Part shown: piece by piece, positions 532 to 54,482 of the stretch
How the letters are laid out: every line of letters begins with the position of its first letter
How positions within the stretch are numbered: the first letter of the stretch is position 1
DNA from: Shigella phage Sf22
Sequence record: MF158045
DNA length: 64,000 bases
Strand: one strand, 5' to 3'
The notes under the pieces: model-generated
Database searches by the model: none
Seen by the model: only the letters and a program-made list of their open reading frames with translations
What the model was told of the DNA's origin: nothing
Translations under genes and position numbers: made by a program

Positions 532-822
532 TTATTTACGGAATGAAATGAAAGCAGCAACTGAAGCAACTAAACTGTCTTCAATATAAACTTCAATTTT
601 TACCGGAGCTTCTGACTCAAATTTACCTGTTACTACACCTTGGAAAATACTTTCAGTTTGTTCTGGCTTTGAAAAATTTTCAGAAGGAAAAATTCCGAAC
701 TTTTTATCTGTTCCAAAAATTTTAATAAATTCATCGTAAACTGCTTCATTAAAAGCATTATCAGCAGGAATAACGCCTTCAACTACAAGTTCTTGACCTA
801 AAAAGCGTAAAGAAGATTTCAT
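532..822 (-). CDS. Hypothetical protein (96 aa) downstream of alt
   Basis: ORF track; start is preceded by GAGGA and the conserved promoter-leader cassette. Confidence 0.55.
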   Translation of the reverse strand: MKSSLRFLGQELVVEGVIPADNAFNEAVYDEFIKIFGTDKKFGIFPSENFSKPEQTESIFQGVVTGKFESEAPVKIEVYIEDSLVASVAAFISFRK

Positions 823-853
823 TTTGTGTTCCTCATGTTATGTCAGTAAGACT

Positions 854-883
854 ACTATAACACAACACGAGGGACTTGTAAAC
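854..883 (-). promoter_or_regulatory. Early sigma70-type promoter (-35 GTTTAC, -10 TATAGT), copy 1 of an exactly duplicated 54-bp promoter-leader cassette
   Basis: Minus-strand reading GTTTAC-N18-TATAGT then leader ending in GAGGA; identical sequence recurs at 16152-16205. Confidence 0.5.
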
Positions 884-2940
884 TACATTTTGAACTTTTT
901 AGACATTCCGTTGATGTTAACCAAAGAAGCTAAGATTTGAGAAACTTCATTTTCCTCTTCTTTTGATTCTTCTACAAGGAATTGATTAAATCCAGCCATT
1001 GGACGAACTTCACCAGTTTCCATTAAATGGTCGCCATCATATACTGATTCTTCTAATTGTTCAGAAGGAGGAACGATTGTACCTTCGATTAGATACTTGT
1101 TATAAGCAGTTTCTTTCATAAAGTACGTGCTCACTTTATTAATCTTCAGTAAAATTCCACGTGGTAGAATAACTTCAGCTTCTGATGGAAATCCTGATAA
1201 ATGACCCGGAACGATAACTTTGATTCGCTCAGCTCCTTTAATTACCATACCCACGCTAGTTTCAGCATCTTCATTAGCATATGTAGAATGACTACCCATA
1301 TGCATCAAATCTTCTGCATCAACAGAACCTTCTCCTTCGCCAGAAAATACTGCACCGGAATCATCTAGAGCCATATAGTTTTTACCATGCTCACCGAAGA
1401 TATTTGGTTTAAGTGATGTTGATACGAAGTTCTTGAAATAGAACATTTTATTTTCAATATTATGGCGTAAAGTTTTAAAGGTAACTTCTTGTCCACGATA
1501 AAGCGTAGTTCCTGGAGGAAGAACTGAACCTTTAGCGAATGCAGAATCCATTGTCTCGATGTGTTTAATAGCTCGTTCCATGTATTCTTCACGGGTAGAA
1601 TCTGGTTTACCCAAAAGGAACGAGTTCATTTCAACATATGAATCTGCACAATAATCTTCAATTACATCAGATTCAGCTTGAGTTAATCCTTTTGGAGTTA
1701 CTTCGGTGCTTGCGTATTCATATGCCTGGGCAGCAGATTCATTAATCAATTTATAAATGCCATTCATGACAAATTGAATAATAGCTGTCTTTTCATCTGG
1801 CGTAGCTTTAGAACCTTTAACTAAATCATTAATAATTTTCTTAATAACATCAAAGCTATTAGAAATATTAATGTCAGCAAGATCGCTTAAAATTTTATCA
1901 GTTTTATAATCAAAGAATTCTTTATTCTTTAAATATTCTTGAGAACCTTGATATGTTATATCGCTCTGCAACTTGATAGATGGATCACGTAAACGTGCAT
2001 GTGCTAATGCAATATGATTTCGGAAGTTTTCTAGTTCATAATCGTTAGATTTAAAACGAGAAGCACTTCTCATACCACCGATAGCTCCTTTGCTAAAGTT
2101 TGAACCAATCTGGATAACCCCGGAGTTCATTGGTCCTTCTGCTTTATATACCGGAACTTTAGATTCAAACTCTTGATATTTCTTGGCAGCGAAGCTATCA
2201 CCCTGAAGTGAAGCATCGACAGTAGAATATTGAGCTTGTGCTGCTAATCGACGACTAATTTTAGTTTTCTGAATAACAGCTTGATCAGTGCGCTTATCAT
2301 TTTCTAAAGCAATAGAAGCAGCAACAGCGACAGCTTTAGGAACAGCATTACCTGTTTTAACGTCTACATAAACATCACCAACCTTTGATTCAACTTTTGT
2401 GAATAACTCAGTTGAAATAGGAGGTACACCTGGAATGTCTTCTAAATTGGCATTTTTACGGTAAACCATAATATATGCGTACTTTTTATCATAGTCCCAG
2501 ATTTCCTTTAAAAGAACATACCGACCTGCTCCTTTAGTACGTACTAAACGGTCAGCAATAACTTGCATTTGACGAGCTGCGCCATTTGTTTTACTCTTTA
2601 GTACGCGGAATAGGCATGCGTCGATTTTATACTGCTTCATTGTTTGAAGAGCAGTATCAAAAACAGCATTAATGACGCCAATTGGATTTCCACCCAAGTT
2701 TCTAAGCTTAACCAGCGATAATTTCTCGTTGACACCTATCATTACGATATGCATCATTTTATCGCCTGGCTTAACGTTTTTATTCGTATCACCACCAGAG
2801 GTGTATGTACAAAATCTAAATCCAGGAAGCACGCTTTCTTCGCCGGCTTGAATAGCAAAAATTTGTGGTATTTTATGCTTAGGATTTAAGTTAACAACCG
2901 GCGCCGAAGCGCCGTCAAATAATTCTGTAATAAGTTCCAT
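883..2940 (-). CDS. alt: Alt-family mono-ADP-ribosyltransferase, paralog A (685 aa)
   Basis: N-terminal MELITELFD... matches recalled T4 Alt; C-terminal domain carries R / STS / E-x-E motifs (LYRGQ, FVSTS, SEAEVILPRG). Confidence 0.85.
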   Translation of the reverse strand: MELITELFDGASAPVVNLNPKHKIPQIFAIQAGEESVLPGFRFCTYTSGGDTNKNVKPGDKMMHIVMIGVNEKLSLVKLRNLGGNPIGVINAVFDTALQTMKQYKIDACLFRVLKSKTNGAARQMQVIADRLVRTKGAGRYVLLKEIWDYDKKYAYIMVYRKNANLEDIPGVPPISTELFTKVESKVGDVYVDVKTGNAVPKAVAVAASIALENDKRTDQAVIQKTKISRRLAAQAQYSTVDASLQGDSFAAKKYQEFESKVPVYKAEGPMNSGVIQIGSNFSKGAIGGMRSASRFKSNDYELENFRNHIALAHARLRDPSIKLQSDITYQGSQEYLKNKEFFDYKTDKILSDLADINISNSFDVIKKIINDLVKGSKATPDEKTAIIQFVMNGIYKLINESAAQAYEYASTEVTPKGLTQAESDVIEDYCADSYVEMNSFLLGKPDSTREEYMERAIKHIETMDSAFAKGSVLPPGTTLYRGQEVTFKTLRHNIENKMFYFKNFVSTSLKPNIFGEHGKNYMALDDSGAVFSGEGEGSVDAEDLMHMGSHSTYANEDAETSVGMVIKGAERIKVIVPGHLSGFPSEAEVILPRGILLKINKVSTYFMKETAYNKYLIEGTIVPPSEQLEESVYDGDHLMETGEVRPMAGFNQFLVEESKEEENEVSQILASLVNINGMSKKFKM

Positions 2941-2943
2941 GAT

Positions 2944-5040
2944 TTATCCTTGAACGAACTTGTAAGGCATGTTTGTAATATCTATGCAAGACGCAATAAT
3001 TCCAAGAGATGATTCTACTTTCTGTTTAACATTTGATGAAACAAATGATGCAAAGTCAACTCTGTCTTCTATTTCAATATCACCTGTCATTGCAACTACT
3101 TCGCCAGTTTCCATTAAACGGTCACCGTCATAAATTACCGATTCGGTGAGTTCTTCGGTGGTCATAACTTCAGCTTGAATGAGTTTTGTATTATTAGACG
3201 TGGTTCCGTCATTATTAGAAGCATCAGTTATTTTATTAACTTTGACCATCAATCCGCGCGGTAGAATAACTTCGGCTTCTGTTGCTATTCCGAGACTTCC
3301 TGGATATACAACATTAACTTTATGAGCTCCATCAATTGCCCATCCTATTTGAACTTTAACGTATTCAGGATTTTCTTTATACGCTCTTATTTCGTTTGGA
3401 TTAATAGTTATTCCTTCTTCATTTTTATCAACTGTTAATTCATTGCGAGCTTCTGGTTCTAAAAGACCAATACCAGCATGTGTAATTCCAAAACGTCCAA
3501 AAATGATAGGAGTTAAAGAAGTAGATACAAAATTTCTGAAATAGAACACTTTATTTTTAACTAGTGCTTCGTATATAGGAGCAGTCATACTTTGAGCACG
3601 ATAAACTGTAATGCCTTCCGGTATACGGTCACCATTTTCAAAAGCTGAATCTAAATTATTTATAGCAGATTCAATTTCTTTTTCACTCATTATATCATAT
3701 CGTTCTGGATTGTAACGACCTAAAAGAAGATTATTGATGTCTGTATATCCTGAACCACAATACTCTCTAATGCCGCGCTTTTGTGATGGAGTATATTTAG
3801 AACCATCACGGGCAATAGTAATATCAATCATTGGACCTGCACCAATTCCGGAAAAGCTATAAATCATTCGTTTGAGGAATTTAGTTTTTGCTGCATTCCA
3901 GGCATTTTTAGTTATTTCTCCCCAGACTTCATCTGGTTGCCCTTTACGAGTTTTATTATGTTTATCAAGCCAATTATCTTTATATTCTTCAAAGAATTTA
4001 TTAACAGCTGCTGCGTATTTCTCTAAACATTTTATTGAAGTAGTTGGTTCATTTTTGATTGCGTTAAAAATTACATCTTTAATTTTTTCGGAAACTTCAT
4101 CAACCTCACTTTTTGAAAAGAATTTATAGTCATAGTGAAGTTCATTCGCAGTTCCTTCGGCAATAATTTTTGCTGCCTTAGTTTTAGAAGCTAATGAATT
4201 AATTCCAAGCTTCATTTCTTCTGCTTCGGGAATTAAAGGAGCGGTAGCAGGTTTATTGAAATTAGCTGCGGTAGATTCATACTTCTGGAATAATTCACTT
4301 TCAAATCTAGAAGACTCTAACGATTGACTTTGTGCAATTGCTCTACGGGAAATTTTAACTTTAACGATTACAGCTTGGTCAGAACGTTTATCGTTTTCTT
4401 GTGCAATAGATGCTGCAATTGCCTCATTTTTAGTTACTTGAGCCCCAGTATCTTTATTGATATAAACATCACCGACCTTCGATTCAACTTTAGTAAAGAG
4501 CTCGGTACTAATTTCCGGAACTCCTGGAATGTCTTCTAGTGATACATTTTTGCGATGTATAAGAATATATGCATACTTTTTATCATAATCCCAGAGTTCC
4601 TTAAGAAGGACGTATCTGCCACCTGAACGACTACGGATAAGTCTATCAGCAATAACTTGAATTTGTCGAGCTTGACCAGCGGTTTTAGACTTAAGAATAC
4701 GGAGCATACAGGCATCAATTTTATACTGACGCATTGTTTGCATTGCAACAGTAAAAACTGAATTGATATAATTAATTGGGCTTGGACCAAGACCTTTTAA
4801 TTTAGCAATTGAACCTTTAGCAGTTAATGTAAAAGGAACAATATGCATCATTTTATCGCCCATCTTTAAATCGCGATTAGTATCACCTCCAGATGTATAG
4901 GTACATAAACGAAAGCCTGGCTGTTCAATTGCATCATCAACGTGAACTGAAAAAATTTGCGGTATTTTCTTCTTTGGATTTAAGTTTGTAATCGGAAGAG
5001 TAGTATCTTCGTCAAATAATTCTGTAATAAGTTCCATCAT
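2944..5040 (-). CDS. alt: Alt-family mono-ADP-ribosyltransferase, paralog B (698 aa)
   Basis: First ~230 aa closely similar to paralog A; central region diverged; catalytic motifs retained (VYRAQ, FVSTS, TEAEVILPRG). Which copy is the T4 alt orthologue cannot be decided without alignment. Confidence 0.85.
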   Translation of the reverse strand: MMELITELFDEDTTLPITNLNPKKKIPQIFSVHVDDAIEQPGFRLCTYTSGGDTNRDLKMGDKMMHIVPFTLTAKGSIAKLKGLGPSPINYINSVFTVAMQTMRQYKIDACMLRILKSKTAGQARQIQVIADRLIRSRSGGRYVLLKELWDYDKKYAYILIHRKNVSLEDIPGVPEISTELFTKVESKVGDVYINKDTGAQVTKNEAIAASIAQENDKRSDQAVIVKVKISRRAIAQSQSLESSRFESELFQKYESTAANFNKPATAPLIPEAEEMKLGINSLASKTKAAKIIAEGTANELHYDYKFFSKSEVDEVSEKIKDVIFNAIKNEPTTSIKCLEKYAAAVNKFFEEYKDNWLDKHNKTRKGQPDEVWGEITKNAWNAAKTKFLKRMIYSFSGIGAGPMIDITIARDGSKYTPSQKRGIREYCGSGYTDINNLLLGRYNPERYDIMSEKEIESAINNLDSAFENGDRIPEGITVYRAQSMTAPIYEALVKNKVFYFRNFVSTSLTPIIFGRFGITHAGIGLLEPEARNELTVDKNEEGITINPNEIRAYKENPEYVKVQIGWAIDGAHKVNVVYPGSLGIATEAEVILPRGLMVKVNKITDASNNDGTTSNNTKLIQAEVMTTEELTESVIYDGDRLMETGEVVAMTGDIEIEDRVDFASFVSSNVKQKVESSLGIIASCIDITNMPYKFVQG

Positions 5041-5278: not shown

Positions 5279-6738
5279 AGACCAGTTACCTCATGAAAAT
5301 CACCAAATACATCCTCGAATGTATTAGCTTTAGTTTTATCTTCACGTAAACGAATCGCAATCGGAAGAAATAATTTAACGTAATCAGTGCGGCCATCAGA
5401 TTTTAACCAACCGTTGCATTCGCACTCTAGAATTTTTCCAATATAATAATTTTGGTTTTCCATAATGCGAGTACGGTCAAGCTCATGTGATTTTACGCCG
5501 GCTTTATCTTTTAAGCCTGAACCAGCATTTACTTTAATTTTTCCACATTCTGATTCAAGAATAAATCCACCCGCTTTAGTAGGGTCTTTACGGTGAGGAT
5601 AAATTCCTACAATTTTTAAATCAACATCAATTACTTCTTTAAATTTATAAAGATTTTTTGAACGAGCATTTTCCCATAATCCATCGATATTTTTGAGAAT
5701 AATACCTTCAAGACCTTGGTCAATATACTTTTTGTAAATTACCTTAGCTTCATCTAGGTTATTTACTACCTGGTTTTCAATTAAAATTACTTTATCATAG
5801 CCTGATGTCATTTGTTCTAGTTTAGAAAAACGTACATCATACTTTAAACGAAATGCAGGAAGACCATATATTTCTACTAATGGAACATAGTCCCAGACCT
5901 GAAACTTCATGCATTGTGCTTCTTTTTCGGAAATGGTTCCCTTTAAAGATTTATTAGCGATTCCATTAGAAGCAGTACGTGATTCAGCTACTTCGGCGAA
6001 TTCTTTAGCTTTACTAATTTCAGGATAAGCATCAAAAAGAAAATCTAGGCCTTCTGGTTCCTTTTTAACTTGCTCATGGTATACCAATTCGCCATCAATT
6101 AACACACCTTCTGGATGAATCTGGCGGGCTTCAGCGGTCATTTTGATTAACTCTTCCTTGAGAAGATCTAATCCTAGATATTCATTACCAGCTCGTGATA
6201 AAAGACGAACATCATCTAATTCATCACCTCTGACTTCAGCAAAGCACCGAGCTCCATCAGCTTTTAATTGGGCAAAGGCTGGAAATTTGATATTCTTATT
6301 AATGCCTTTTTCATCATAAGAACTTGCCAGCATTTGAGGTTGTTCAGGAATTAAACCTGGCCAAACTTTGTTTGCAATAGATACTGATGCACCACATTCA
6401 AGGTCTCGCATCATCACCCGACGCAAAACTTCAACATCATCTTTTTTACCGTCAGCAATATATCCAGTTAATTCCTCAATTGCCGCATTTCCGGTCAATT
6501 TCCGAGTAGCTAACGTTAATTCAATGAAGTCAAGCATATCGGTAAGAGTCAACATTCCAAAACTCTGGGTAGCAATACCAGGTTTAGGCCATTTCTTGAT
6601 ATAATACTGTAACCCACGAGAATAAGTCAGACGATATACTCGTTTAAGCAATTCATTATCTTTATTCTTTTCAAGAATTGCTTGCTTCTGCTTAGTTGAA
6701 CCAATAGATGCTATTTCGTTCAGAATTTTAAGAATCAT
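5275..6738 (-). CDS. 30: ATP-dependent DNA ligase
   Basis: 487 aa, MILKILNEIASIGSTKQKQAILEKNKDNELLKRVYRLTY... matches recalled T4 DNA ligase throughout. Confidence 0.97.
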   Translation of the reverse strand: MILKILNEIASIGSTKQKQAILEKNKDNELLKRVYRLTYSRGLQYYIKKWPKPGIATQSFGMLTLTDMLDFIELTLATRKLTGNAAIEELTGYIADGKKDDVEVLRRVMMRDLECGASVSIANKVWPGLIPEQPQMLASSYDEKGINKNIKFPAFAQLKADGARCFAEVRGDELDDVRLLSRAGNEYLGLDLLKEELIKMTAEARQIHPEGVLIDGELVYHEQVKKEPEGLDFLFDAYPEISKAKEFAEVAESRTASNGIANKSLKGTISEKEAQCMKFQVWDYVPLVEIYGLPAFRLKYDVRFSKLEQMTSGYDKVILIENQVVNNLDEAKVIYKKYIDQGLEGIILKNIDGLWENARSKNLYKFKEVIDVDLKIVGIYPHRKDPTKAGGFILESECGKIKVNAGSGLKDKAGVKSHELDRTRIMENQNYYIGKILECECNGWLKSDGRTDYVKLFLPIAIRLREDKTKANTFEDVFGDFHEVTGL

Positions 6739-9015: not shown

Positions 9016-9381
9016 TTAAATATCAAATTCGTTAAGAACTACATCAAAGATTGCTTCCAAGTGCTCAGGTTTAGCTTTGTTACTCAGAATATGACGAATC
9101 CAAGTTTTAACCAAAAGCTTGCGATTAACGCCATTCCAGCAAGGATGAGCCCCTAAATCGCGTTGACGGAAATCATCATCCAGAGCGATTTTAAAGTTGG
9201 AACCTTCCATTGTGATTGAAACCGTGATACCGTTTTCAAATCGCATATAAACGTAATTAGGAGTCATATACTGTTCAATTTCGCATACTGAACCATTTTG
9301 ATGTTTCCAGAGGCAAATAGTATCAATAGAACCTGCAATACCATTAGAAACATATTTACGTTCAAAGTTAATGTAGTTCAT
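9016..9381 (-). CDS. Hypothetical protein (121 aa; start moved to MNYINF)
   Basis: Conserved leader TTGGAGAATAAAATG; the track start is a TTG inside the RBS. Confidence 0.5.
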   Translation of the reverse strand: MNYINFERKYVSNGIAGSIDTICLWKHQNGSVCEIEQYMTPNYVYMRFENGITVSITMEGSNFKIALDDDFRQRDLGAHPCWNGVNRKLLVKTWIRHILSNKAKPEHLEAIFDVVLNEFDI

Positions 9382-9406
9382 TTTATTCTCCAAGATGTTT
9401 AATTGC

Positions 9407-9446
9407 GGTACAGGTATATAATATCATATCCTGTACCAAAGTAAAC
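9407..9446 (-). promoter_or_regulatory. Early promoter (GTTTAC -35) with 8-bp inverted repeat GGTACAGG/CCTGTACC bracketing the -10
   Basis: GTTTAC-N17-TATTAT on minus strand; arms at about 9407-9414 and 9430-9437. Confidence 0.45.
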
Positions 9447-9448
9447 AA

Positions 9449-9781
9449 TTATTTTACTACTTTCCAGTGCTTCATGTCAAGTTTACCAACTTTTTTCATC
9501 TTCTCAATTAAGCGTTCGGCACGTTGGCGAGCTGTAACATAATACCATTCACCTAATTCATTTTGTTCAATTTTTCCAACGATTACTGTATTCAATTCAT
9601 AAATCCAACCAGTAAAGAAATTATGAACTTGAATTGTAAAGGTGAAATCTGTTCCCATACCTTCTGTTGTTTCTACTTCAATAATATCACCTTCAACTGC
9701 CATTAAGAACCACATAGTTTCATCATATTTACCATTGAAGCATTTAGTTTTAACTGCAGCGTTCAGATTAATCGTTTTCAT
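9449..9781 (-). CDS. Hypothetical protein (110 aa)
   Basis: ORF track; AGGAGAATAAAATG RBS. Confidence 0.5.
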   Translation of the reverse strand: MKTINLNAAVKTKCFNGKYDETMWFLMAVEGDIIEVETTEGMGTDFTFTIQVHNFFTGWIYELNTVIVGKIEQNELGEWYYVTARQRAERLIEKMKKVGKLDMKHWKVVK

Positions 9782-9865
9782 TTTATTCTCCTTTGTTTGT
9801 GTAAGATAATACTATCACAAAGGAGCTATACTGTAAACAACTTTATGCAATCTTTGGAAAATAAA

Positions 9866-12606: not shown

Positions 12607-12839
12607 AGTACGCCATACACCCTTTGTGCTTCAACTAATCCATCAAAATCCAATTTGAGATGTGTTATTTGGTCACCATCACCTGGATTCACAATTACTA
12701 ATACTGAACGAGGAGTTTCGGTAATAACACGAACCGATGTTTCAGGAAATCGTTCAGAAACCTTATTTACCAATTCCTGTGCAAATAGCTTAACTTTTTC
12801 TTGGAATTCTTTAACAGTAATTGGTTTTTCACTTAGCAT
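12603..12839 (-). CDS. Hypothetical protein (78 aa)
   Basis: ORF track. Confidence 0.5.
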   Translation of the reverse strand: MLSEKPITVKEFQEKVKLFAQELVNKVSERFPETSVRVITETPRSVLVIVNPGDGDQITHLKLDFDGLVEAQRVYGVL

Positions 12840-12901
12840 TTTGTTTTCCTCATTTGTTTTGGTAGAGCTATAATATCACAACTCTACCAAAAAGTAAACT
12901 A

Positions 12902-15650: not shown

Positions 15651-16147
15651 AAAGTTTTAATAACCTCTATAATATCGTCTTGAGAAAGACCGTTAATTAA
15701 AATATGATGTTCAGCTGGAGATTTAGAAATTTTAAAGCATGCCTCAACATCTTCTGCCATATCCGATGCACTACGATTTGGATTACTAATACCAAGGCGG
15801 TGTTTTCCCGTCAAAGGATTAACGATGATATAGCATTTGCAGCTATTGATATGAACATTGGGTTGAGTCTGATTAATGAACACTTCACAATCATACTTAG
15901 CGAGTTGATTTTCTAAAAAGACTTTCATCTCTTCAACCGCATCAGGAAGCATATCACGGGCTTGCTCAAGACGACGATTTCGATATTCTTTAATGGTCGT
16001 TTTCCGCTTGACTTGCTTAGCTAAATCTTTCTTAAGATCGGTGATATATCCAACTCGACGATTTCCTTTGAATACAGAAATCCCATCTGTAGTATCACCG
16101 TATGCTTCAACGACCATTTCAGTAGTAATAAGTTGTAAATCCATCAT
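15641..16147 (-). CDS. alc: Alc, inhibitor of host transcription on cytosine-containing DNA
   Basis: 168 aa, MMDLQLITTEMVVEAYGDTTDG... matches recalled T4 Alc; synteny. Confidence 0.9.
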   Translation of the reverse strand: MMDLQLITTEMVVEAYGDTTDGISVFKGNRRVGYITDLKKDLAKQVKRKTTIKEYRNRRLEQARDMLPDAVEEMKVFLENQLAKYDCEVFINQTQPNVHINSCKCYIIVNPLTGKHRLGISNPNRSASDMAEDVEACFKISKSPAEHHILINGLSQDDIIEVIKTLCN

Positions 16148-16175
16148 AAAGTCCTCATGTTATGTCAGTAAGACT

Positions 16176-16205
16176 ACTATAACACAACACGAGGGACTTG
16201 TAAAC
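16176..16205 (-). promoter_or_regulatory. Early promoter, copy 2 of the duplicated 54-bp promoter-leader cassette
   Basis: Sequence identical to 830-883; GTTTAC-N18-TATAGT, leader and GAGGA immediately upstream of the alc ATG. Confidence 0.5.
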
Positions 16206-25544: not shown

Positions 25545-25640
25545 ATTATTTTCCTCTTTAATCATCAGCAGTATTGCCGATAGTTGTATAGTACCATGGA
25601 AGAACAGGGATGTAAACAGTTTTGTGAAAAAATTTTTGAA

Positions 25641-25667
25641 ATAAAAAAGGGGACCCTAGAGGTCCCC
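25641..25667 (-). terminator. Rho-independent terminator downstream of gene 32
   Basis: GGGGACC-CTAGA-GGTCCCC stem followed by TTTTTTAT on minus strand. Confidence 0.6.
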
Positions 25668-41983: not shown

Positions 41984-42619
41984 TCACAGTTCAGATGCTA
42001 CAGTGATTACAGCTTCAATGTTTTCTGCTGAACGTTTAATGTCAAGATACACATTACCGTTTTTAGCGATTTTACATGACATTCCGATATCAGTAAATTT
42101 CTGAATATGATGTTCCATCATTTTGTATCCAAAAATTCGCATATTTCCATTATTGTTAATTTCAAAATTACGAATTCCGTGAGTGCGTTTTTCTAAAATA
42201 GCGAGATAGTTACTGCGATAAGTTTCAACCTTTTTAAGAACAAATCCATTTTCATCTAAAAGTTTTAACATGAAGTCTTTATCTTCTTCCATATCAGAAG
42301 TAATCTCACGAGATTTACGAGTTGCTCGTTTTTTCAGCAGTTCCGGAGCATTTTCCTGTGCGTATAAAGTTGCTGCGTTTGAAATAATATCCTGAGCTTC
42401 ACCAGTAATGATTAATCCATCACCAGATTTCTCTACCAGGCCCTTTTTAATCAATACACCAATATTACTATTAACTACTGCGTTACCTAAATCTGGATGC
42501 ACCTCACGAACTTCTGCAGCTGTAATGAAATCTTTCTTAGCAATAGTAATTAAAATCGCAGCAGTTTTTTCATTCAGAACATCGTTAGAAGCTTTGATGA
42601 TGTAAGTTACTTTAGACAT
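41984..42619 (-). CDS. motA: Middle-transcription activator
   Basis: 211 aa, MSKVTYIIKASNDVLNEKTAAILITIAKKDFITAAEVREVHPDLGNAVVNS... matches recalled T4 MotA. Confidence 0.93.
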   Translation of the reverse strand: MSKVTYIIKASNDVLNEKTAAILITIAKKDFITAAEVREVHPDLGNAVVNSNIGVLIKKGLVEKSGDGLIITGEAQDIISNAATLYAQENAPELLKKRATRKSREITSDMEEDKDFMLKLLDENGFVLKKVETYRSNYLAILEKRTHGIRNFEINNNGNMRIFGYKMMEHHIQKFTDIGMSCKIAKNGNVYLDIKRSAENIEAVITVASEL

Positions 42620-42656
42620 TTTCTAATCTCCGTAATTCTGTATCAGTAGTTGATAG

Positions 42657-42689
42657 TTGTATAGTACCACAGTATGCTTTGGTTGTAAA
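42657..42689 (-). promoter_or_regulatory. Early promoter for motA (GTTTAC -35, TG-extended TACTAT -10, AT-rich UP element)
   Basis: Minus strand AAAATTTTTTTCACAAAACGGTTTAC-N18-TACTATAC then leader CAACTACTGATACAG...GGAG...ATG. Confidence 0.5.
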
Positions 42690-42700
42690 CCGTTTTGTGA

Positions 42701-42730
42701 AAAAAATTTAAAATAAAAAGGGAGAGCCGA
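42701..42730 (-). terminator. Rho-independent terminator (GGGAGAGCC-GA-GGCTCTCCC + T-run)
   Basis: Perfect 9-bp stem followed by TTTTTATTTT on minus strand. Confidence 0.6.
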
Positions 42731-42745
42731 GGCTCTCCCTAAAAA

Positions 42746-45823: not shown

Positions 45824-45923
45824 AGTAAACGTTTAATACATCAATCATTAAAACGATTGGGAATATACTCAAAACTATTAGTATTATAACTACATTCCAT
45901 ATAGCTTTAATAATCTTTTTCAT
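45810..45923 (-). CDS. Small membrane protein (37 aa; start moved to MKKIIKAIW)
   Basis: The 82-aa track ORF reads through a promoter; the internal ATG has a GGAGG RBS. Confidence 0.45.
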   Translation of the reverse strand: MKKIIKAIWNVVIILIVLSIFPIVLMIDVLNVYFGFM

Positions 45924-46166
45924 TTTCTGTTCCTCCGTAGTTGATAGGGTAATAGTACCACGGAAGAACAGTCTTGTAAACAACTTTTTTAAAAATATTC
46001 GTAATAAATGTGAATACCAACTACTACCGCTGAAACCTGTGCAACCCACCACGCGCAAGCAATAAGTACAGAATTCAAAATTTTCATAATAACCTCATTA
46101 CAAAAGTAAATGTTAAACAAATTACTGGAATACTAATTAACCAAACAAAACACCACCATAATGAAC

Positions 46167-46430
46167 TCATAGCTCAATCTCAGCGATTTTCATTTCATTA
46201 CTATTAATAGCCTCTTTAAGACTATCTGAAAGAATTACATTCCAGTGGTCATTCATATGACCATTAACTAAGCGTGTAATTTCTTCAGGAGTTGAAAAAT
46301 AAGGCTGATCAGACTCCCAATGCGATAATCCTAAGCGAGTATAAATCATGCCTTCATCATCGCTCGAATATTCAACTGACACAAACTCATCAGTTATTTT
46401 ATGTTTAGCGTAATAAAATTTAAATTTCAT
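46167..46430 (-). CDS. Hypothetical protein (87 aa; start moved to MKFKFYY)
   Basis: Conserved leader TTGGAGAATAAAATG. Confidence 0.5.
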   Translation of the reverse strand: MKFKFYYAKHKITDEFVSVEYSSDDEGMIYTRLGLSHWESDQPYFSTPEEITRLVNGHMNDHWNVILSDSLKEAINSNEMKIAEIEL

Positions 46431-46464
46431 TTTATTCTCCAAATCCGTATCAGTAGTTGATAGT

Positions 46465-46497
46465 TGTATAGTACCACGGTCCTTGTGGTATGTAAAC
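46465..46497 (-). promoter_or_regulatory. Early promoter (GTTTAC -35, TG-extended TACTAT -10) with conserved leader
   Basis: Near-identical module to the motA promoter at 42657-42689. Confidence 0.5.
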
Positions 46498-46512
46498 TGT
46501 TTTGTGAAATTT

Positions 46513-47070
46513 TTAAATGGAAAGATACCATCCGCTGTAGTTGCTTTTTCTTACAACTTTACGAAGGTCTTCTCTGTCACCGATGAACTTCGGAGTGTAC
46601 TGGATGACACCTGGATGAATTTCTTTAGTGTTGAATATAATTATACAGTCAGCGACTTGATGATTTAGAATGGGCCCTAGATTTATTCCAGAACCATATG
46701 GATACTCTCCGCTGCATCCTGTTGTTACCGAAATCCAACGCGAGTCAGTTTGATGTGTCTTAACTTCTACGCGAAGCCCGCAGTATTTTGGATGCGCCAA
46801 TACATCCCATGCATATGTGTACGGATCATCGACATCTTCTTGGCCTTTATTGACATATCCGCTTAGCCAATCTGCCACAAAAAACTCTGCGTACACAGCG
46901 ATACGGCATCTTTCGATAACTTCTGCCTTATCCTGATTTGGATTTTGTTTTAAAGAGTATCTTGCTGTATCAGCAATTTTGACCTTCATTTCACTAGTCA
47001 AGTCACTGTTCGATAGGGTAAATGTCGGAATCTGAAATAGTCTCCGTAAACCCGGATTCGTTTTCTGCAT
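46513..47070 (-). CDS. denB: Endonuclease IV
   Basis: 185 aa, MQKTNPGLRRLFQIPTFTLSNSDLTSEMKVKIADTARYSLKQNPNQDKAEVIERC... matches recalled T4 DenB. Confidence 0.9.
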   Translation of the reverse strand: MQKTNPGLRRLFQIPTFTLSNSDLTSEMKVKIADTARYSLKQNPNQDKAEVIERCRIAVYAEFFVADWLSGYVNKGQEDVDDPYTYAWDVLAHPKYCGLRVEVKTHQTDSRWISVTTGCSGEYPYGSGINLGPILNHQVADCIIIFNTKEIHPGVIQYTPKFIGDREDLRKVVRKSNYSGWYLSI

Positions 47071-47113: not shown

Positions 47114-47129
47114 AAGGGCCGAAGCCCTT
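47114..47129 (-). terminator. Stem-loop AAGGGC-CGAA-GCCCTT, copy 1
   Basis: Perfect 6-bp stem with T-rich flank; identical copy at 47346-47361. Confidence 0.45.
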
Positions 47130-50755: not shown

Positions 50756-52576
50756 CTACTGGCTCATCCATTCTTTACGAAGGTCAGCATTATCTCCCAT
50801 GAGCATTTCAAAAAGCTCTTTCCAATTCTCAGGAAGTTTAACAACATCATATACTGGATTTTGAATCATCTCACGATATTCAGATTTTTCCAAAGAGCCA
50901 AGTCCCTTAATATAACGGATGCTATGTTTAGGTAGAGCATCTTTGGCACTCTCATATTCAGCGACTGTATAAAACCATTCTTGTTTTTTACCGACCTGAG
51001 CGATGATTACAGGAGTTTTGACAAAGCGAATTCGTCCTTGCTCAAACAATTCTGGCCAATTACTAAAAAATCCGAGCAGAGAAGGATAAATGCTTCCTAA
51101 ACCATCATGGTCAGCATCAGTCATAATAGCAATATTATGATAATTCAAGTTTTCAGCTTTTTCACCGAGAACTAGACCAGTGATTGCGCAAATATCAAAT
51201 AATTCTTTGTTTTTAAGCATATCTGCATAAGACATACCCCAACTGTTGAGAACTTTACCACGCAATGGATAACCACCGTGAAGTTCTTTATCACGAACAT
51301 CAATAAGATATCCGATAGCCGAATCACCCTCAGTCAAGAAAAGAGTAGTATCAGCATCTTTACCGCAAAGATTCGCTTTGATATGTTTATGAACTTTAGC
51401 TTTAGAAGCCTTTTTAGCTGCTTTAGTTTCAGCTGCTTTTTCTGCTGCCAATTTACGGGCCAAGGCAGCTTCAATAATCGGCATTAAAATTGCTTCATTA
51501 TTTAGAATAGCGCGTGAAATCTTTTTAGCATCAAGCTGAATATGACTACGAATTTCGCCAAATGGAGAAGTCAAACGCTCTTTAGTTTGAGAATCAAATC
51601 GCATGTTTTTCATATCACGGACAAACATAACGATAGTCAAACATTCTTTGACACGTGCTTTAGTTACATCAATTTTGAACTTACGTTTGATTTGTGGAAT
51701 AAGGTCTTCACAAATATCATCCATAACACAGTCAATGTGATGGCCACCATTCTTAGTGTGAATGTTATTCACATAAGTTAATTGGCGAAATCCATCCGGT
51801 GAACGACCAACCGCAATAGAACAATTTTCTTGTTCTTGAACAATAGCATGTTCATCATACTGTCGTGCATATTTCTTAAAATTGCCCTGAACCTTTTTAC
51901 CATTAAAGGTAAATTGAATATCAGGATAAACTACTGCAAGTGTCTGGAGACGATCCAGTGTAATGTCAAGATAAACTTGGGACAGCTCATTAGTTTCAAA
52001 TGACATAAAATCTGGAATGAAAGTAACACGAGTTCCTTTCCATTTTCCAGGAATAGTTTCCCAGGATTTATTTTCCATGCCATTTGAACAACGAACTACA
52101 ATATTATTTTGACCATCGCCAGTTTCACCGACAAACATCACAGAAAAAATGTTAGTTAAACTAGAACCAACACCATTCATACCACCGGTGACACGTTCTT
52201 TATCATCACCAAAGTTACCACCCGCTTTTGGAATAGTCCAAGCAGCAACTGGACCAGGAATTTCTTCACCGGTAGGTGTTTTAACCATCGCTTGTGGAAT
52301 ACCACGACCGTTATCTTCAACTGTTACTTGATTGTTTTTGATAGTAACATTAATTTTATTTGCGAATTTAAACTTAGTACGAATACCTTCATCTACTGAG
52401 TTATCGATAATTTCATCAATAAGCTTAACAAGACCAGGTACATACTGAACACTTTCCCATTTACCAAACAGAAAGCGCTCATGCATTTCATTAGCAGAAG
52501 AGCCAATATACATGCCGCTACGCTTTTTGATATGTTCAATATCGCTCAGAATTTTAATTTCATTCTTAATCATCAC
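50756..52576 (-). CDS. 39: DNA topoisomerase II large (ATPase) subunit, single uninterrupted ORF
   Basis: 606 aa GyrB-like protein; continuous, so it covers the regions that T4 splits into genes 39 and 60. Confidence 0.93.
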   Translation of the reverse strand: MMIKNEIKILSDIEHIKKRSGMYIGSSANEMHERFLFGKWESVQYVPGLVKLIDEIIDNSVDEGIRTKFKFANKINVTIKNNQVTVEDNGRGIPQAMVKTPTGEEIPGPVAAWTIPKAGGNFGDDKERVTGGMNGVGSSLTNIFSVMFVGETGDGQNNIVVRCSNGMENKSWETIPGKWKGTRVTFIPDFMSFETNELSQVYLDITLDRLQTLAVVYPDIQFTFNGKKVQGNFKKYARQYDEHAIVQEQENCSIAVGRSPDGFRQLTYVNNIHTKNGGHHIDCVMDDICEDLIPQIKRKFKIDVTKARVKECLTIVMFVRDMKNMRFDSQTKERLTSPFGEIRSHIQLDAKKISRAILNNEAILMPIIEAALARKLAAEKAAETKAAKKASKAKVHKHIKANLCGKDADTTLFLTEGDSAIGYLIDVRDKELHGGYPLRGKVLNSWGMSYADMLKNKELFDICAITGLVLGEKAENLNYHNIAIMTDADHDGLGSIYPSLLGFFSNWPELFEQGRIRFVKTPVIIAQVGKKQEWFYTVAEYESAKDALPKHSIRYIKGLGSLEKSEYREMIQNPVYDVVKLPENWKELFEMLMGDNADLRKEWMSQ

Positions 52577-54208: not shown

Positions 54209-54385
54209 TCAAACTTTAATATTTTCACAATCCCAATTTTTACGAACAATCTTCAAAAGCTGCAGTAAATCTTTACATTCAGCAATATCGATAACACATC
54301 CACGAGAATCTTCCATTATCGCACGATAACCGTAAGCCATACCATAATCATTAAAAGATTGCTCGATGATAATTAAGTTTTCCAT
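54209..54385 (-). CDS. Hypothetical protein (58 aa; start moved to MENLIIIEQ)
   Basis: Conserved leader TTGGAGAATAAAATG. Confidence 0.45.
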   Translation of the reverse strand: MENLIIIEQSFNDYGMAYGYRAIMEDSRGCVIDIAECKDLLQLLKIVRKNWDCENIKV

Positions 54386-54409
54386 TTTATTCTCCAAGTT
54401 GTTTTCTGT

Positions 54410-54450
54410 ATCAGTAGTTGATATTGATATAGTACCATAATCAACTACTG
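54410..54450 (-). promoter_or_regulatory. 13-bp perfect inverted repeat (ATCAGTAGTTGAT / ATCAACTACTGAT) bracketing a TACTAT -10-like element
   Basis: Arms separated by 17 nt; overlaps the conserved early-promoter/leader module. Confidence 0.4.
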
Positions 54451-54482
54451 ATGTATATAGTTTTATGAAAAAATTTTAAACT

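Follow-up and report, generated by a model that had tools for sequence, protein, structure and literature searches.

Early promoter modules recur in the window

What keeps the sequence ahead of motA so like the sequence ahead of several other genes of the same phage? In the 64,000-nucleotide stretch of Shigella phage Sf22 analysed here (record MF158045, hereafter the window), a promoter and leader upstream of motA (42620–42689) return with few changes upstream of other open reading frames (ORFs), and the initial annotation took this likeness, which runs beyond the promoter hexamers, to imply shared post-transcriptional control. The window comes from a Tequatrovirus, a relative of T4: the 4.8-kb stretch around the locus is 95–97% identical to Tequatrovirus genomes, and the several hundred records that match it include ECML-134, PST and T4 variants. 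T4 has the same modules upstream of motA, upstream of ndd.6, and between motB and cef.

The module ahead of motA comprises the following features.

41984–42619, minus strand: motA coding sequence, the gene behind the first module (Pfam PF09114 and PF09158, MotA_activ and MotCF; aligned to T4)
42719–42740, minus strand: intrinsic terminator downstream of motA.1, a hairpin (AGGGAGAGCCTCGGCTCTCCCT) with a trailing T-run (terminator scan)
42691–42718, minus strand: A/T-rich UP-element region ending in TTTTTTCACAAAACG, common to the promoters at 25617, 46497 and 54458
42685–42690, minus strand: −35 element GTTTAC of the motA early promoter (minus_35_signal in T4 record Z48569)
42670–42684, minus strand: 15-nt spacer, AACCAAAGCATACTG, different from that of the 46497 module
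42661–42669, minus strand: extended −10 element TGGTACTAT (TGn + TACTAT; minus_10_signal in Z48569)
42634–42660, minus strand: discriminator ACAACT, putative +1 and shared initial transcribed block ATCAACTACTGATACAGAATT, an exact repeat
After the +1 A at 42654, minus strand: motA leader, ATCAACTACTGATACAGAATTAC
42621–42631, minus strand: Shine–Dalgarno (SD) sequence and predicted RegB/S1 target GGAGATTAGAA, immediately followed by the motA ATG (42617–42619)

Z48569, the T4 motA record, annotates the −35 and −10 elements at exactly corresponding bases, and the record of phage fPS-2 places a 'terminator' and a 'predicted early promoter' at the motA site; the reading of these segments as early promoters with leaders was thus correct. 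A literature search for a genome-wide T4 start-site data set returned nothing usable, and we infer the motA start at 42654, the A of ATCAAC, from its 7-nt distance to the −10 element. The hairpin after motA.1 folds at −18.6 kcal/mol (z −5.07) and is the stem-loop part of the motA cassette.

The other modules studied lie on the same minus strand, upstream of ndd.6, ndd.4 and frd.3 or in the motB–cef spacer.

46431–46525, minus strand: second module, at the T4 ndd.6 position, with the same module in T4
46498–46525, minus strand: UP block of the second module
46492–46497, minus strand: its −35 element, GTTTAC
46477–46491, minus strand: its spacer, ATACCACAAGGACCG
46468–46476, minus strand: its extended −10 element TGGTACTAT, with the putative +1 A at 46461
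46430–46440, minus strand: its SD sequence GGAGAATAAAA, preceded by the leader ATCAACTACTGATACGGATTT
46167–46430, minus strand: 87-aa ORF behind the second module (phrog_2390, function unassigned)
54386–54473, minus strand: third module, between motB and cef, with UP block
54453–54458, minus strand: its degenerate −35 element, ATATAC (4/6 match)
54429–54437, minus strand: its extended −10 element TGGTACTAT, with the putative +1 A at 54422
54385–54395, minus strand: its SD sequence GGAGAATAAAA, preceded by the leader ATCAACTACTGATACAGAAAACAACTT
25545–25667, minus strand: frd.3 module, with terminator hairpin (25649–25667), UP block, GTTTAC (25612–25617), spacer ATCCCTGTTCTTCCA, then TGGTACTATACAACTATC and a different leader
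45924–45981, minus strand: ndd.4 module, with GTTTAC (45976–45981), spacer AAGACTGTTCTTCCG, TGGTACTAT (45952–45960) and leader ATCAACTACGGAGGAACAGAAA; ATG at 45921–45923

The second and third modules follow the plan of the motA module and both end in GGAGAATAAAATG. No obvious stem-loop was found directly upstream of the second module, which we class as an ordinary early promoter and not as a complete PeSL, the cassette type discussed below. The 15-nt spacer of the third module includes 13 nt (54440–54452) that are the exact reverse complement of the bases opening its own transcript (54410–54422), so that RNA reading through from motB would form a 13-bp hairpin across the −10 element (−20.2 kcal/mol, z −5.06); the T4 motB–cef promoter has the same self-complementary arrangement. 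Behind the third module lies a 58-aa ORF (phrog_3720, function unassigned; 54209–54385, minus strand), where T4 has the promoter and leader followed by only an 11-codon remnant.

The likeness between modules is concentrated in blocks. A 31-nt block, GTGGTACTATACAACTATCAACTACTGATAC, is 100% identical upstream of motA (42640–42670) and of the ORF starting at 46430 (46447–46477), which bears out the recurrence ahead of these two genes. Within it, the exact 30-mer TGGTACTATACAACTATCAACTACTGATAC occurs at 42640–42669 and 46447–46476, both on the minus strand, with no occurrence expected from shuffled sequence. The leader and −10 context had also been noted at the ORF starting at 54385, where a third copy of TGGTACTATACAACTATCAACTACTGATAC with three mismatches lies at 54408–54437 (minus strand), and the variants reported near 25575–25617 and 45931–45980 correspond to partial block copies at 25617 and 45981. 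The pattern GTTTAC-N15-TGGTACTATAC is found at 25586–25617, 42659–42690 and 46466–46497, all on the minus strand (0 expected from shuffles). Upstream of the −35 element, the block TTTTTTCACAAAACnGTTTAC is exact at 25612–25632 and 42685–42705 and returns with three mismatches at 46492–46512 and 54453–54473 (0.05 expected). A spacing of 17 or 18 nt after GTTTAC had been proposed, but only 15 nt separate GTTTAC from TGGTACTAT; counted from one sigma-70 hexamer (TTTACA) to the other (TACTAT), the distance is 17 nt.

Local BLAST between the motA and second modules returned two blocks: the 31-nt block, with 100% identity, and one of 19 nt around the −35 element, with 95%. The modules are thus near-identical in these blocks but not in the spacer or in the leader past about +21, where the two sequences diverge up to GGAG. 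At the 15-nt spacer between the blocks only 6/15 positions agree (T4 count), a mismatch that is also seen in the window's own promoter alignment. Such a spacer between identical blocks rules out a simple recent duplication of the whole module.

Conservation outside the hexamers is partly a family property

The T4-specific pattern GTTTAC-N15-TGnTAnnnT retrieved 17 promoters from the window's early strand, all about 20–45 nt ahead of an ATG and each mapping to a T4 early gene. The loci are mrh.2, modB, srd, motB.2, rIIA.1, ndd.6, ndd.4, motA, asiA, frd.3, frd.1, alc, cd.2, 30.8, 30.7 and alt.-3, together with the motB–cef promoter. When the 17 promoters are aligned on the −10 element, information content is high at −44 to −40, −36 to −31, −16 to −6 and −2 to +3, and it fades past about +6. 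The conserved upstream positions are A residues at −44, −42 and −40, within a shared UP block, TTTTTTCACAAAAC. The exact GTTTAC (−36 to −31) is present in the motA, second, frd.3 and ndd.4 modules, and the extended −10 element TGGTACTAT stands at the 17-bp sigma-70 spacing of a T4-type early promoter.

Some conservation outside the hexamers is therefore a general property of this promoter class, whereas the block from +7 to +21 is not. The T4 early promoters are known for a consensus that extends beyond the hexamers and have been called 'uber' promoters (Hinton 2010 review, PMC2988021). That unmodified host RNA polymerase transcribes T4 motA as soon as infection begins, with no need for phage protein synthesis, is known from the literature (Uzan et al. 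1990, as cited in the reference list of PMC3014915).

The modules share with the T4 early promoters (motA, ndd.6) the GTTTAC −35 element, the TGn extended −10 element, the A-rich UP region and the site ahead of early genes. The sequence upstream of motA is the same in window and T4 apart from a few substitutions, and the window promoter regions are mostly about 96–99% identical to T4 (frd.3 and cd.2, 92–93%). Some window promoters have other spacers (frd.3) or other downstream ORFs, but nothing essential differs. A consensus for the T4 early promoter (Pe) was reportedly given by Liebig and Ruger in 1989.

We also scanned 129 kb of T4 (coordinates 1–80,000 and 119,500–168,903), which hold nearly all its early genes. 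There, TGGTACTATacaactATC occurs at about 10 promoters and ATCAACTACTGAT at five, those of imm.1, e.8, motA, ndd.6 and motB–cef. A search of the full-text literature for the literal sequence strings returned matches only in unrelated primer lists.

Promoter segments and small genes are replaced between relatives

Comparison with close relatives, phages about 95–99% identical, revealed changes at the scale of both single promoter segments and whole ORFs, with other spacers and leaders at orthologous promoters. Both flanks of the window frd.3 promoter are about 98% identical to T4 frd.3, and a patch from −37 to −17 (25597–25617, minus strand) is replaced. From the UP block to +5, the window frd.3 module differs from the T4 e.8 promoter by a single mismatch. 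Judged from the sequences, this patch appears to be a short-patch ectopic gene conversion between promoters separated by about 76 kb in T4.

At least three versions of the motA promoter are found in phages whose MotA proteins are 99% identical. The first is the type of T4 and the window, with the leader form ATCAACTACTGATACAGAATTA, for which other phages have ATCAAATAAATGAACTGAAA. In the second, found in phage a48, the motA spacer is replaced by AAGCATAAAGCTTTA, the frd.3/nrdC.10 spacer, and the leader is ATCAAATAAATGAACTGAAA. The third, in relatives L002–L004, includes an extra 75-aa ORFan (phrog_10955) flanked by two promoters with leader ATCAAATAAATGAACTGAAA. This ORFan, inserted between motA.1 and motA and flanked by two cassettes with leader CTATCAAATAAATGAACTGAAAC, is present in 138/552 phage records (in L002, an IMG/VR contig, at 5560–6010) and absent from the window and T4; phages such as Pinarejo and HP3 have it in this arrangement. 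A requirement for the T4-type leader in the control of motA is ruled out, as a different leader serves in phages whose MotA is 99% identical.

At the ndd.6 position, the window equals T4 up to ATGAAA, after which the genes are unrelated (the 87-aa phrog_2390 ORF in the window, ndd.6 in T4). The window's 87-aa ORF stands behind a different leader, ATCAGCTACGGAGGAGTAAAAATG, in L005 and fPS-2. The same leader thus precedes different genes, and the same gene follows different leaders. The leaders at this position read ATCAACTGATAC in L002, ATCAACTAATAC in a48 and ATCAGCTACGGAGG in L005 and fPS-2; the alternative early leaders can be contrasted as ATCAACTACTGATAC versus ATCAAATAAATGAAC.

More distant phages, the IMG/VR sequences L007–L011 with MotA 67–69% identical to that of the window, have a recurrent leader of their own, ATACCAAACAAA. 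Their discriminator and leader, tacctcATACCAAACAAA, are shuffled among promoters, and their block upstream of the −35 element is aaactaaccGTTTAC. This pattern suggests lineage-specific homogenization of promoter cassettes.

Elsewhere in the window, the topoisomerase large-subunit gene (50756–52576) is uninterrupted, with 606 codons. T4 2807–3910, comprising the gene 60 bypass region, 60.1 and mobA, is absent, and about 51 nt stand in its place at window 51105–51155.

A predicted RegB site lies in the ribosome-binding region

The conservation extends past the hexamers into the leader and the ribosome-binding site, as had been noted, and is not limited to the −35 and −10 elements. As regards shared post-transcriptional control, the SD block is the only part for which the proposal stands, through a known consensus; the identity from +7 to +21 does not support it. 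Compared with the RegB/S1 consensus GGAGRAYARAA, the SD sequence GGAGAAUAAAA ahead of the ORFs starting at 46430 and 54385 is exact, and that of motA matches at 10/11 positions. The predicted motA target reads GGAGAUUAGAA or GGAGATTAGAA, and the leaders are unstructured. Exact copies of GGAGAATAAAA number five in the window, all of them on the early strand and adjoining an ATG.

GGAGAAUAAAA is the published recognition consensus of RegB/S1, a site that must be single-stranded (Durand et al. 2006, PMC1702504). The motA mRNA is a good RegB substrate (PMC1702504; Uzan & Miller 2010, PMC3014915), and T4 motA RNA is cleaved in vivo between the G and A of GGAG in a regB-dependent manner (PMC1702504). 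As at the RegB/S1 sites of T4 early mRNAs, the leaders that hold the SD blocks here are unstructured, and the start codon follows at once. Only the final 11 nt of the module belong to this site; RegB leaves the identity from −16 to +21 unexplained. No motif matching a MotA-box middle promoter or a RegA operator was noticed.

An alternative that would account for the remaining identity is that the shared leader (+1 to about +21, beginning AUCAACUACUGAUAC) acts as a cis-regulatory RNA for motA and the ORFs starting at 46430 and 54385, besides RegB, whether as a 5′ stabilizing hairpin, a protein-binding site or an antisense target. The block has three exact copies in the window and five in T4, a 4-bp 5′ hairpin (AUCA/UGAU) can be drawn, and the third-module spacer holds a perfect 13-nt antisense that would be present in motB read-through RNA. 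However, the leaders fold no better than shuffled sequences (z −0.39, 0.01 and +0.82 for the three), and Rfam gave no match to them at the gathering threshold or, within the leaders, at E ≤ 1. The 5′ hairpin UAUCA-ACUAC-UGAUA shrinks, once the start is placed at the A, to only 4 bp of about −0.6 kcal/mol, and is also broken by indels in relatives (ATCAACTGATAC, ATCAACTAATAC, ATCAGCTACGG). The block is not retained at orthologous positions either, since motA in L002–L004 and a48 uses ATCAAATAAATGAACTGAAA, the ndd.6-position leaders vary, and the distant phages with MotA use ATACCAAACAAA. We therefore consider a regulatory role of this kind unlikely to a marked degree. No stable conserved fold or curated-family match of a structured cis-regulatory leader RNA was found. 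A sub-threshold Rfam match to SorY (E 0.49) overlaps the terminator and is noise. Being unstructured, without an Rfam match, not kept at orthologues and shared in a mosaic manner, the identity from +7 to +21 is not evidence of control.

A narrower proposal is that the block from +1 to +13, AUCAACUACUGAU, tags the 5′ end of a small subset of co-regulated early mRNAs and is recognized in trans. AUCAACUACUGAU heads five T4 early mRNAs (motA, ndd.6, imm.1, e.8 and the motB–cef ORF), and its partner could be the antisense copy in motB read-through RNA or a phage or host factor. We regard such a tag as highly improbable. Homogenization explains the persistence of the five sense copies of ATCAACTACTGAT in T4, while leaving room for an added function.

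Mosaic sharing among T4 promoters points to recombination

We analysed the sharing of blocks among 29 T4 promoters, with within-sequence shuffles and column permutation, which preserves the consensus, as controls. Spacers agree at 11/15 or more positions in 9 pairs, compared with 0.07 expected from shuffling and 0.68 from column permutation. From +1 to +20, at least 15/20 positions agree in 18 pairs, with 0.01 and 0.43 expected, respectively. The sharing of UP block, spacer, start region and SD sequence is discordant between promoters. The rIIA.1 and nrdC.5 promoters agree at 14/15 spacer positions, 6/30 UP positions and 4/20 positions of the start region; nrdC.10 and frd.3 agree at 15/15 in the spacer and 27/30 in the UP block, with 6/20 in the start region; imm.1 and ndd.6 share the start region at 20/20 positions and the spacer at 4/15. 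Such a mosaic is what patchy recombination between dispersed repeats would produce, and what selection towards a single optimum would not. We infer recombination from these mosaic patterns, and any direction given to an exchange is putative.

Pure convergence, with every position selected for promoter strength or escape and no exchange between copies, would agree with the information-rich nature of T4 early promoters, whose consensus reaches outside the hexamers (PMC2988021), and with the conservation of −6 to +3 family-wide and across genera. Against it, spacers are common to specific pairs only, with the 9 pairs observed far from the 0.68 expected when the consensus is preserved. The identity also enters coding sequence, the T4 ndd.6 copy continuing to match imm.1 for 9 nt past ATGAAA, and the frd.3 orthologues of window and T4 differ by a clean patch equal to another promoter. 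Convergence alone thus has very little probability. Chance or low-complexity matching in A/T-rich intergenic DNA is as good as refuted: the genome is A/T-rich and a generic sigma-70 consensus scan of the window was uninformative (66 sites versus 67 in shuffled sequence), but the specific patterns were observed 3–4 times against 0 to 0.1 expected in shuffles, and only the T4-specific pattern discriminates.

The modules resemble PeSL cassettes

Taken together, the segments are very probably T4-type early promoter (Pe) cassettes, in their PeSL form, kept alike by selection on promoter and RegB site together with recombination. They represent an instance of an already described system, with function read by homology to T4. 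PeSLs (promoter-early stem-loops) were defined as units of about 100 bp, with an early promoter, a stem-loop and an SD sequence, in hyperplastic regions; recombination between them, with crossovers between the −10 element and the ATG, excises mini-circles (Arbiol et al. 2010, PMC2839356). PeSLs of T4 and PST have the consensus TTTACW-N17-TAYWAT, which the modules here fit, and the worked example, an ndd.4/.5 exchange, concerns the locus of the second module described here (Comeau, Arbiol & Krisch 2014, PMC4122927).

Like PeSLs, several modules of the window combine a terminator or stem-loop, an early promoter and SD/ATG in roughly 100 bp, and the modules cluster in hyperplastic regions. A stem-loop accompanies the promoters of motA (42719–42740, z −5.07), frd.3 (25649–25667) and the third module (13 bp over the −10 element), and none the second. 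They also border small accessory ORFs and mark the junctions of indels and replacements between close relatives, as seen for the ORFan in 138/552 records and at the ndd.6 position. They differ in that the second module has no adjacent stem-loop, and in that the short-patch replacement of the frd.3 spacer is finer in scale than the published ORF-level events. The cassettes here are known from sequence, and mini-circles only from the literature.

In the mechanism that we propose, a cassette would consist, in order, of a terminator or stem-loop, an A/T-rich UP region, the −35 element GTTTAC(A), a 15-bp spacer, the extended −10 element TGgTAyTAT, a discriminator, a start near the A of ATCAAC, a short unstructured leader, the GGAG SD sequence and the ATG. 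According to the literature, host sigma-70 RNA polymerase would fire these promoters immediately after infection. The ribosome-binding site GGAG(A)AUAAAA would double as a site for RegB and ribosomal protein S1, through which RegB would later inactivate the early mRNAs. The identity between cassettes probably arises in three ways: through selection for contact with RNA polymerase (about −60 to about +6), through selection for the SD/RegB site, and through ectopic homologous recombination with short-patch gene conversion between dispersed cassettes. The third probably accounts for the remainder, namely spacers, +7 to +21 and even first codons, and the same exchange may move, delete and replace small accessory genes flanked by cassettes. 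Promoter activity, RegB cleavage and mini-circle formation are here taken from the literature; the anatomy, family consensus, mosaic sharing and cassette-associated replacements between relatives come from the present comparisons.

Several early promoters lie within hairpins

In T4 genes e, soc and I-TevI, hairpins mask the SD sequence in read-through transcripts, and the masking is relieved by transcription from an internal promoter. The 30.8, alc, alt.-3 and third-module promoters also lie inside strong hairpins. The 3′ arm of these hairpins begins no earlier than the start site and in three cases covers the SD sequence. By contrast, the motA and second modules have no such hairpin, and the classical cases involve late promoters.

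The alt.-3 (815–883, minus strand) and alc (16140–16205, minus strand) promoters are twins, identical from the −35 element to the SD sequence over about 55 nt. Their hairpins fold at −23 to −24 kcal/mol (z about −4 to −4.6), with a 3′ arm that covers the SD sequence GAGGA. On this folding model, the SD sequence would be hidden when transcription reads through and accessible when it starts at the internal promoter. The 30.7, 30.8 and cd.2 promoters (9376–9446, 9776–9838 and 12825–12899, minus strand) each lie in an inverted repeat spanning the −10 element (z −5.3, −3.5 and −4.75, respectively), and are PeSLs of the class with a stem-loop overlapping the −10 element. The 3′ arm of the 30.8 hairpin, CAAAGGAG, includes the SD sequence. 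A further hairpin, the palindromic GC-rich AAGGGCCGAAGCCCTT (47114–47129), lies between denB.1 and denB and has a terminator score on both strands.

Significance

These results confirm known T4 biology in a T4 relative, namely strong early promoters, a RegB-sensitive ribosome-binding site and promoter cassettes at which accessory genes recombine. In genome scans of T4-like phages, near-identical promoter and leader repeats should first be read as recombination-homogenized cassettes of the PeSL type; such repeats are not by themselves evidence for a new leader RNA. The frd.3 spacer swap and the three motA promoter versions illustrate in a compact way how fast the cassettes exchange, and could be the starting point for studying gene conversion of promoters at the population scale, over about 550 Tequatrovirus genomes.
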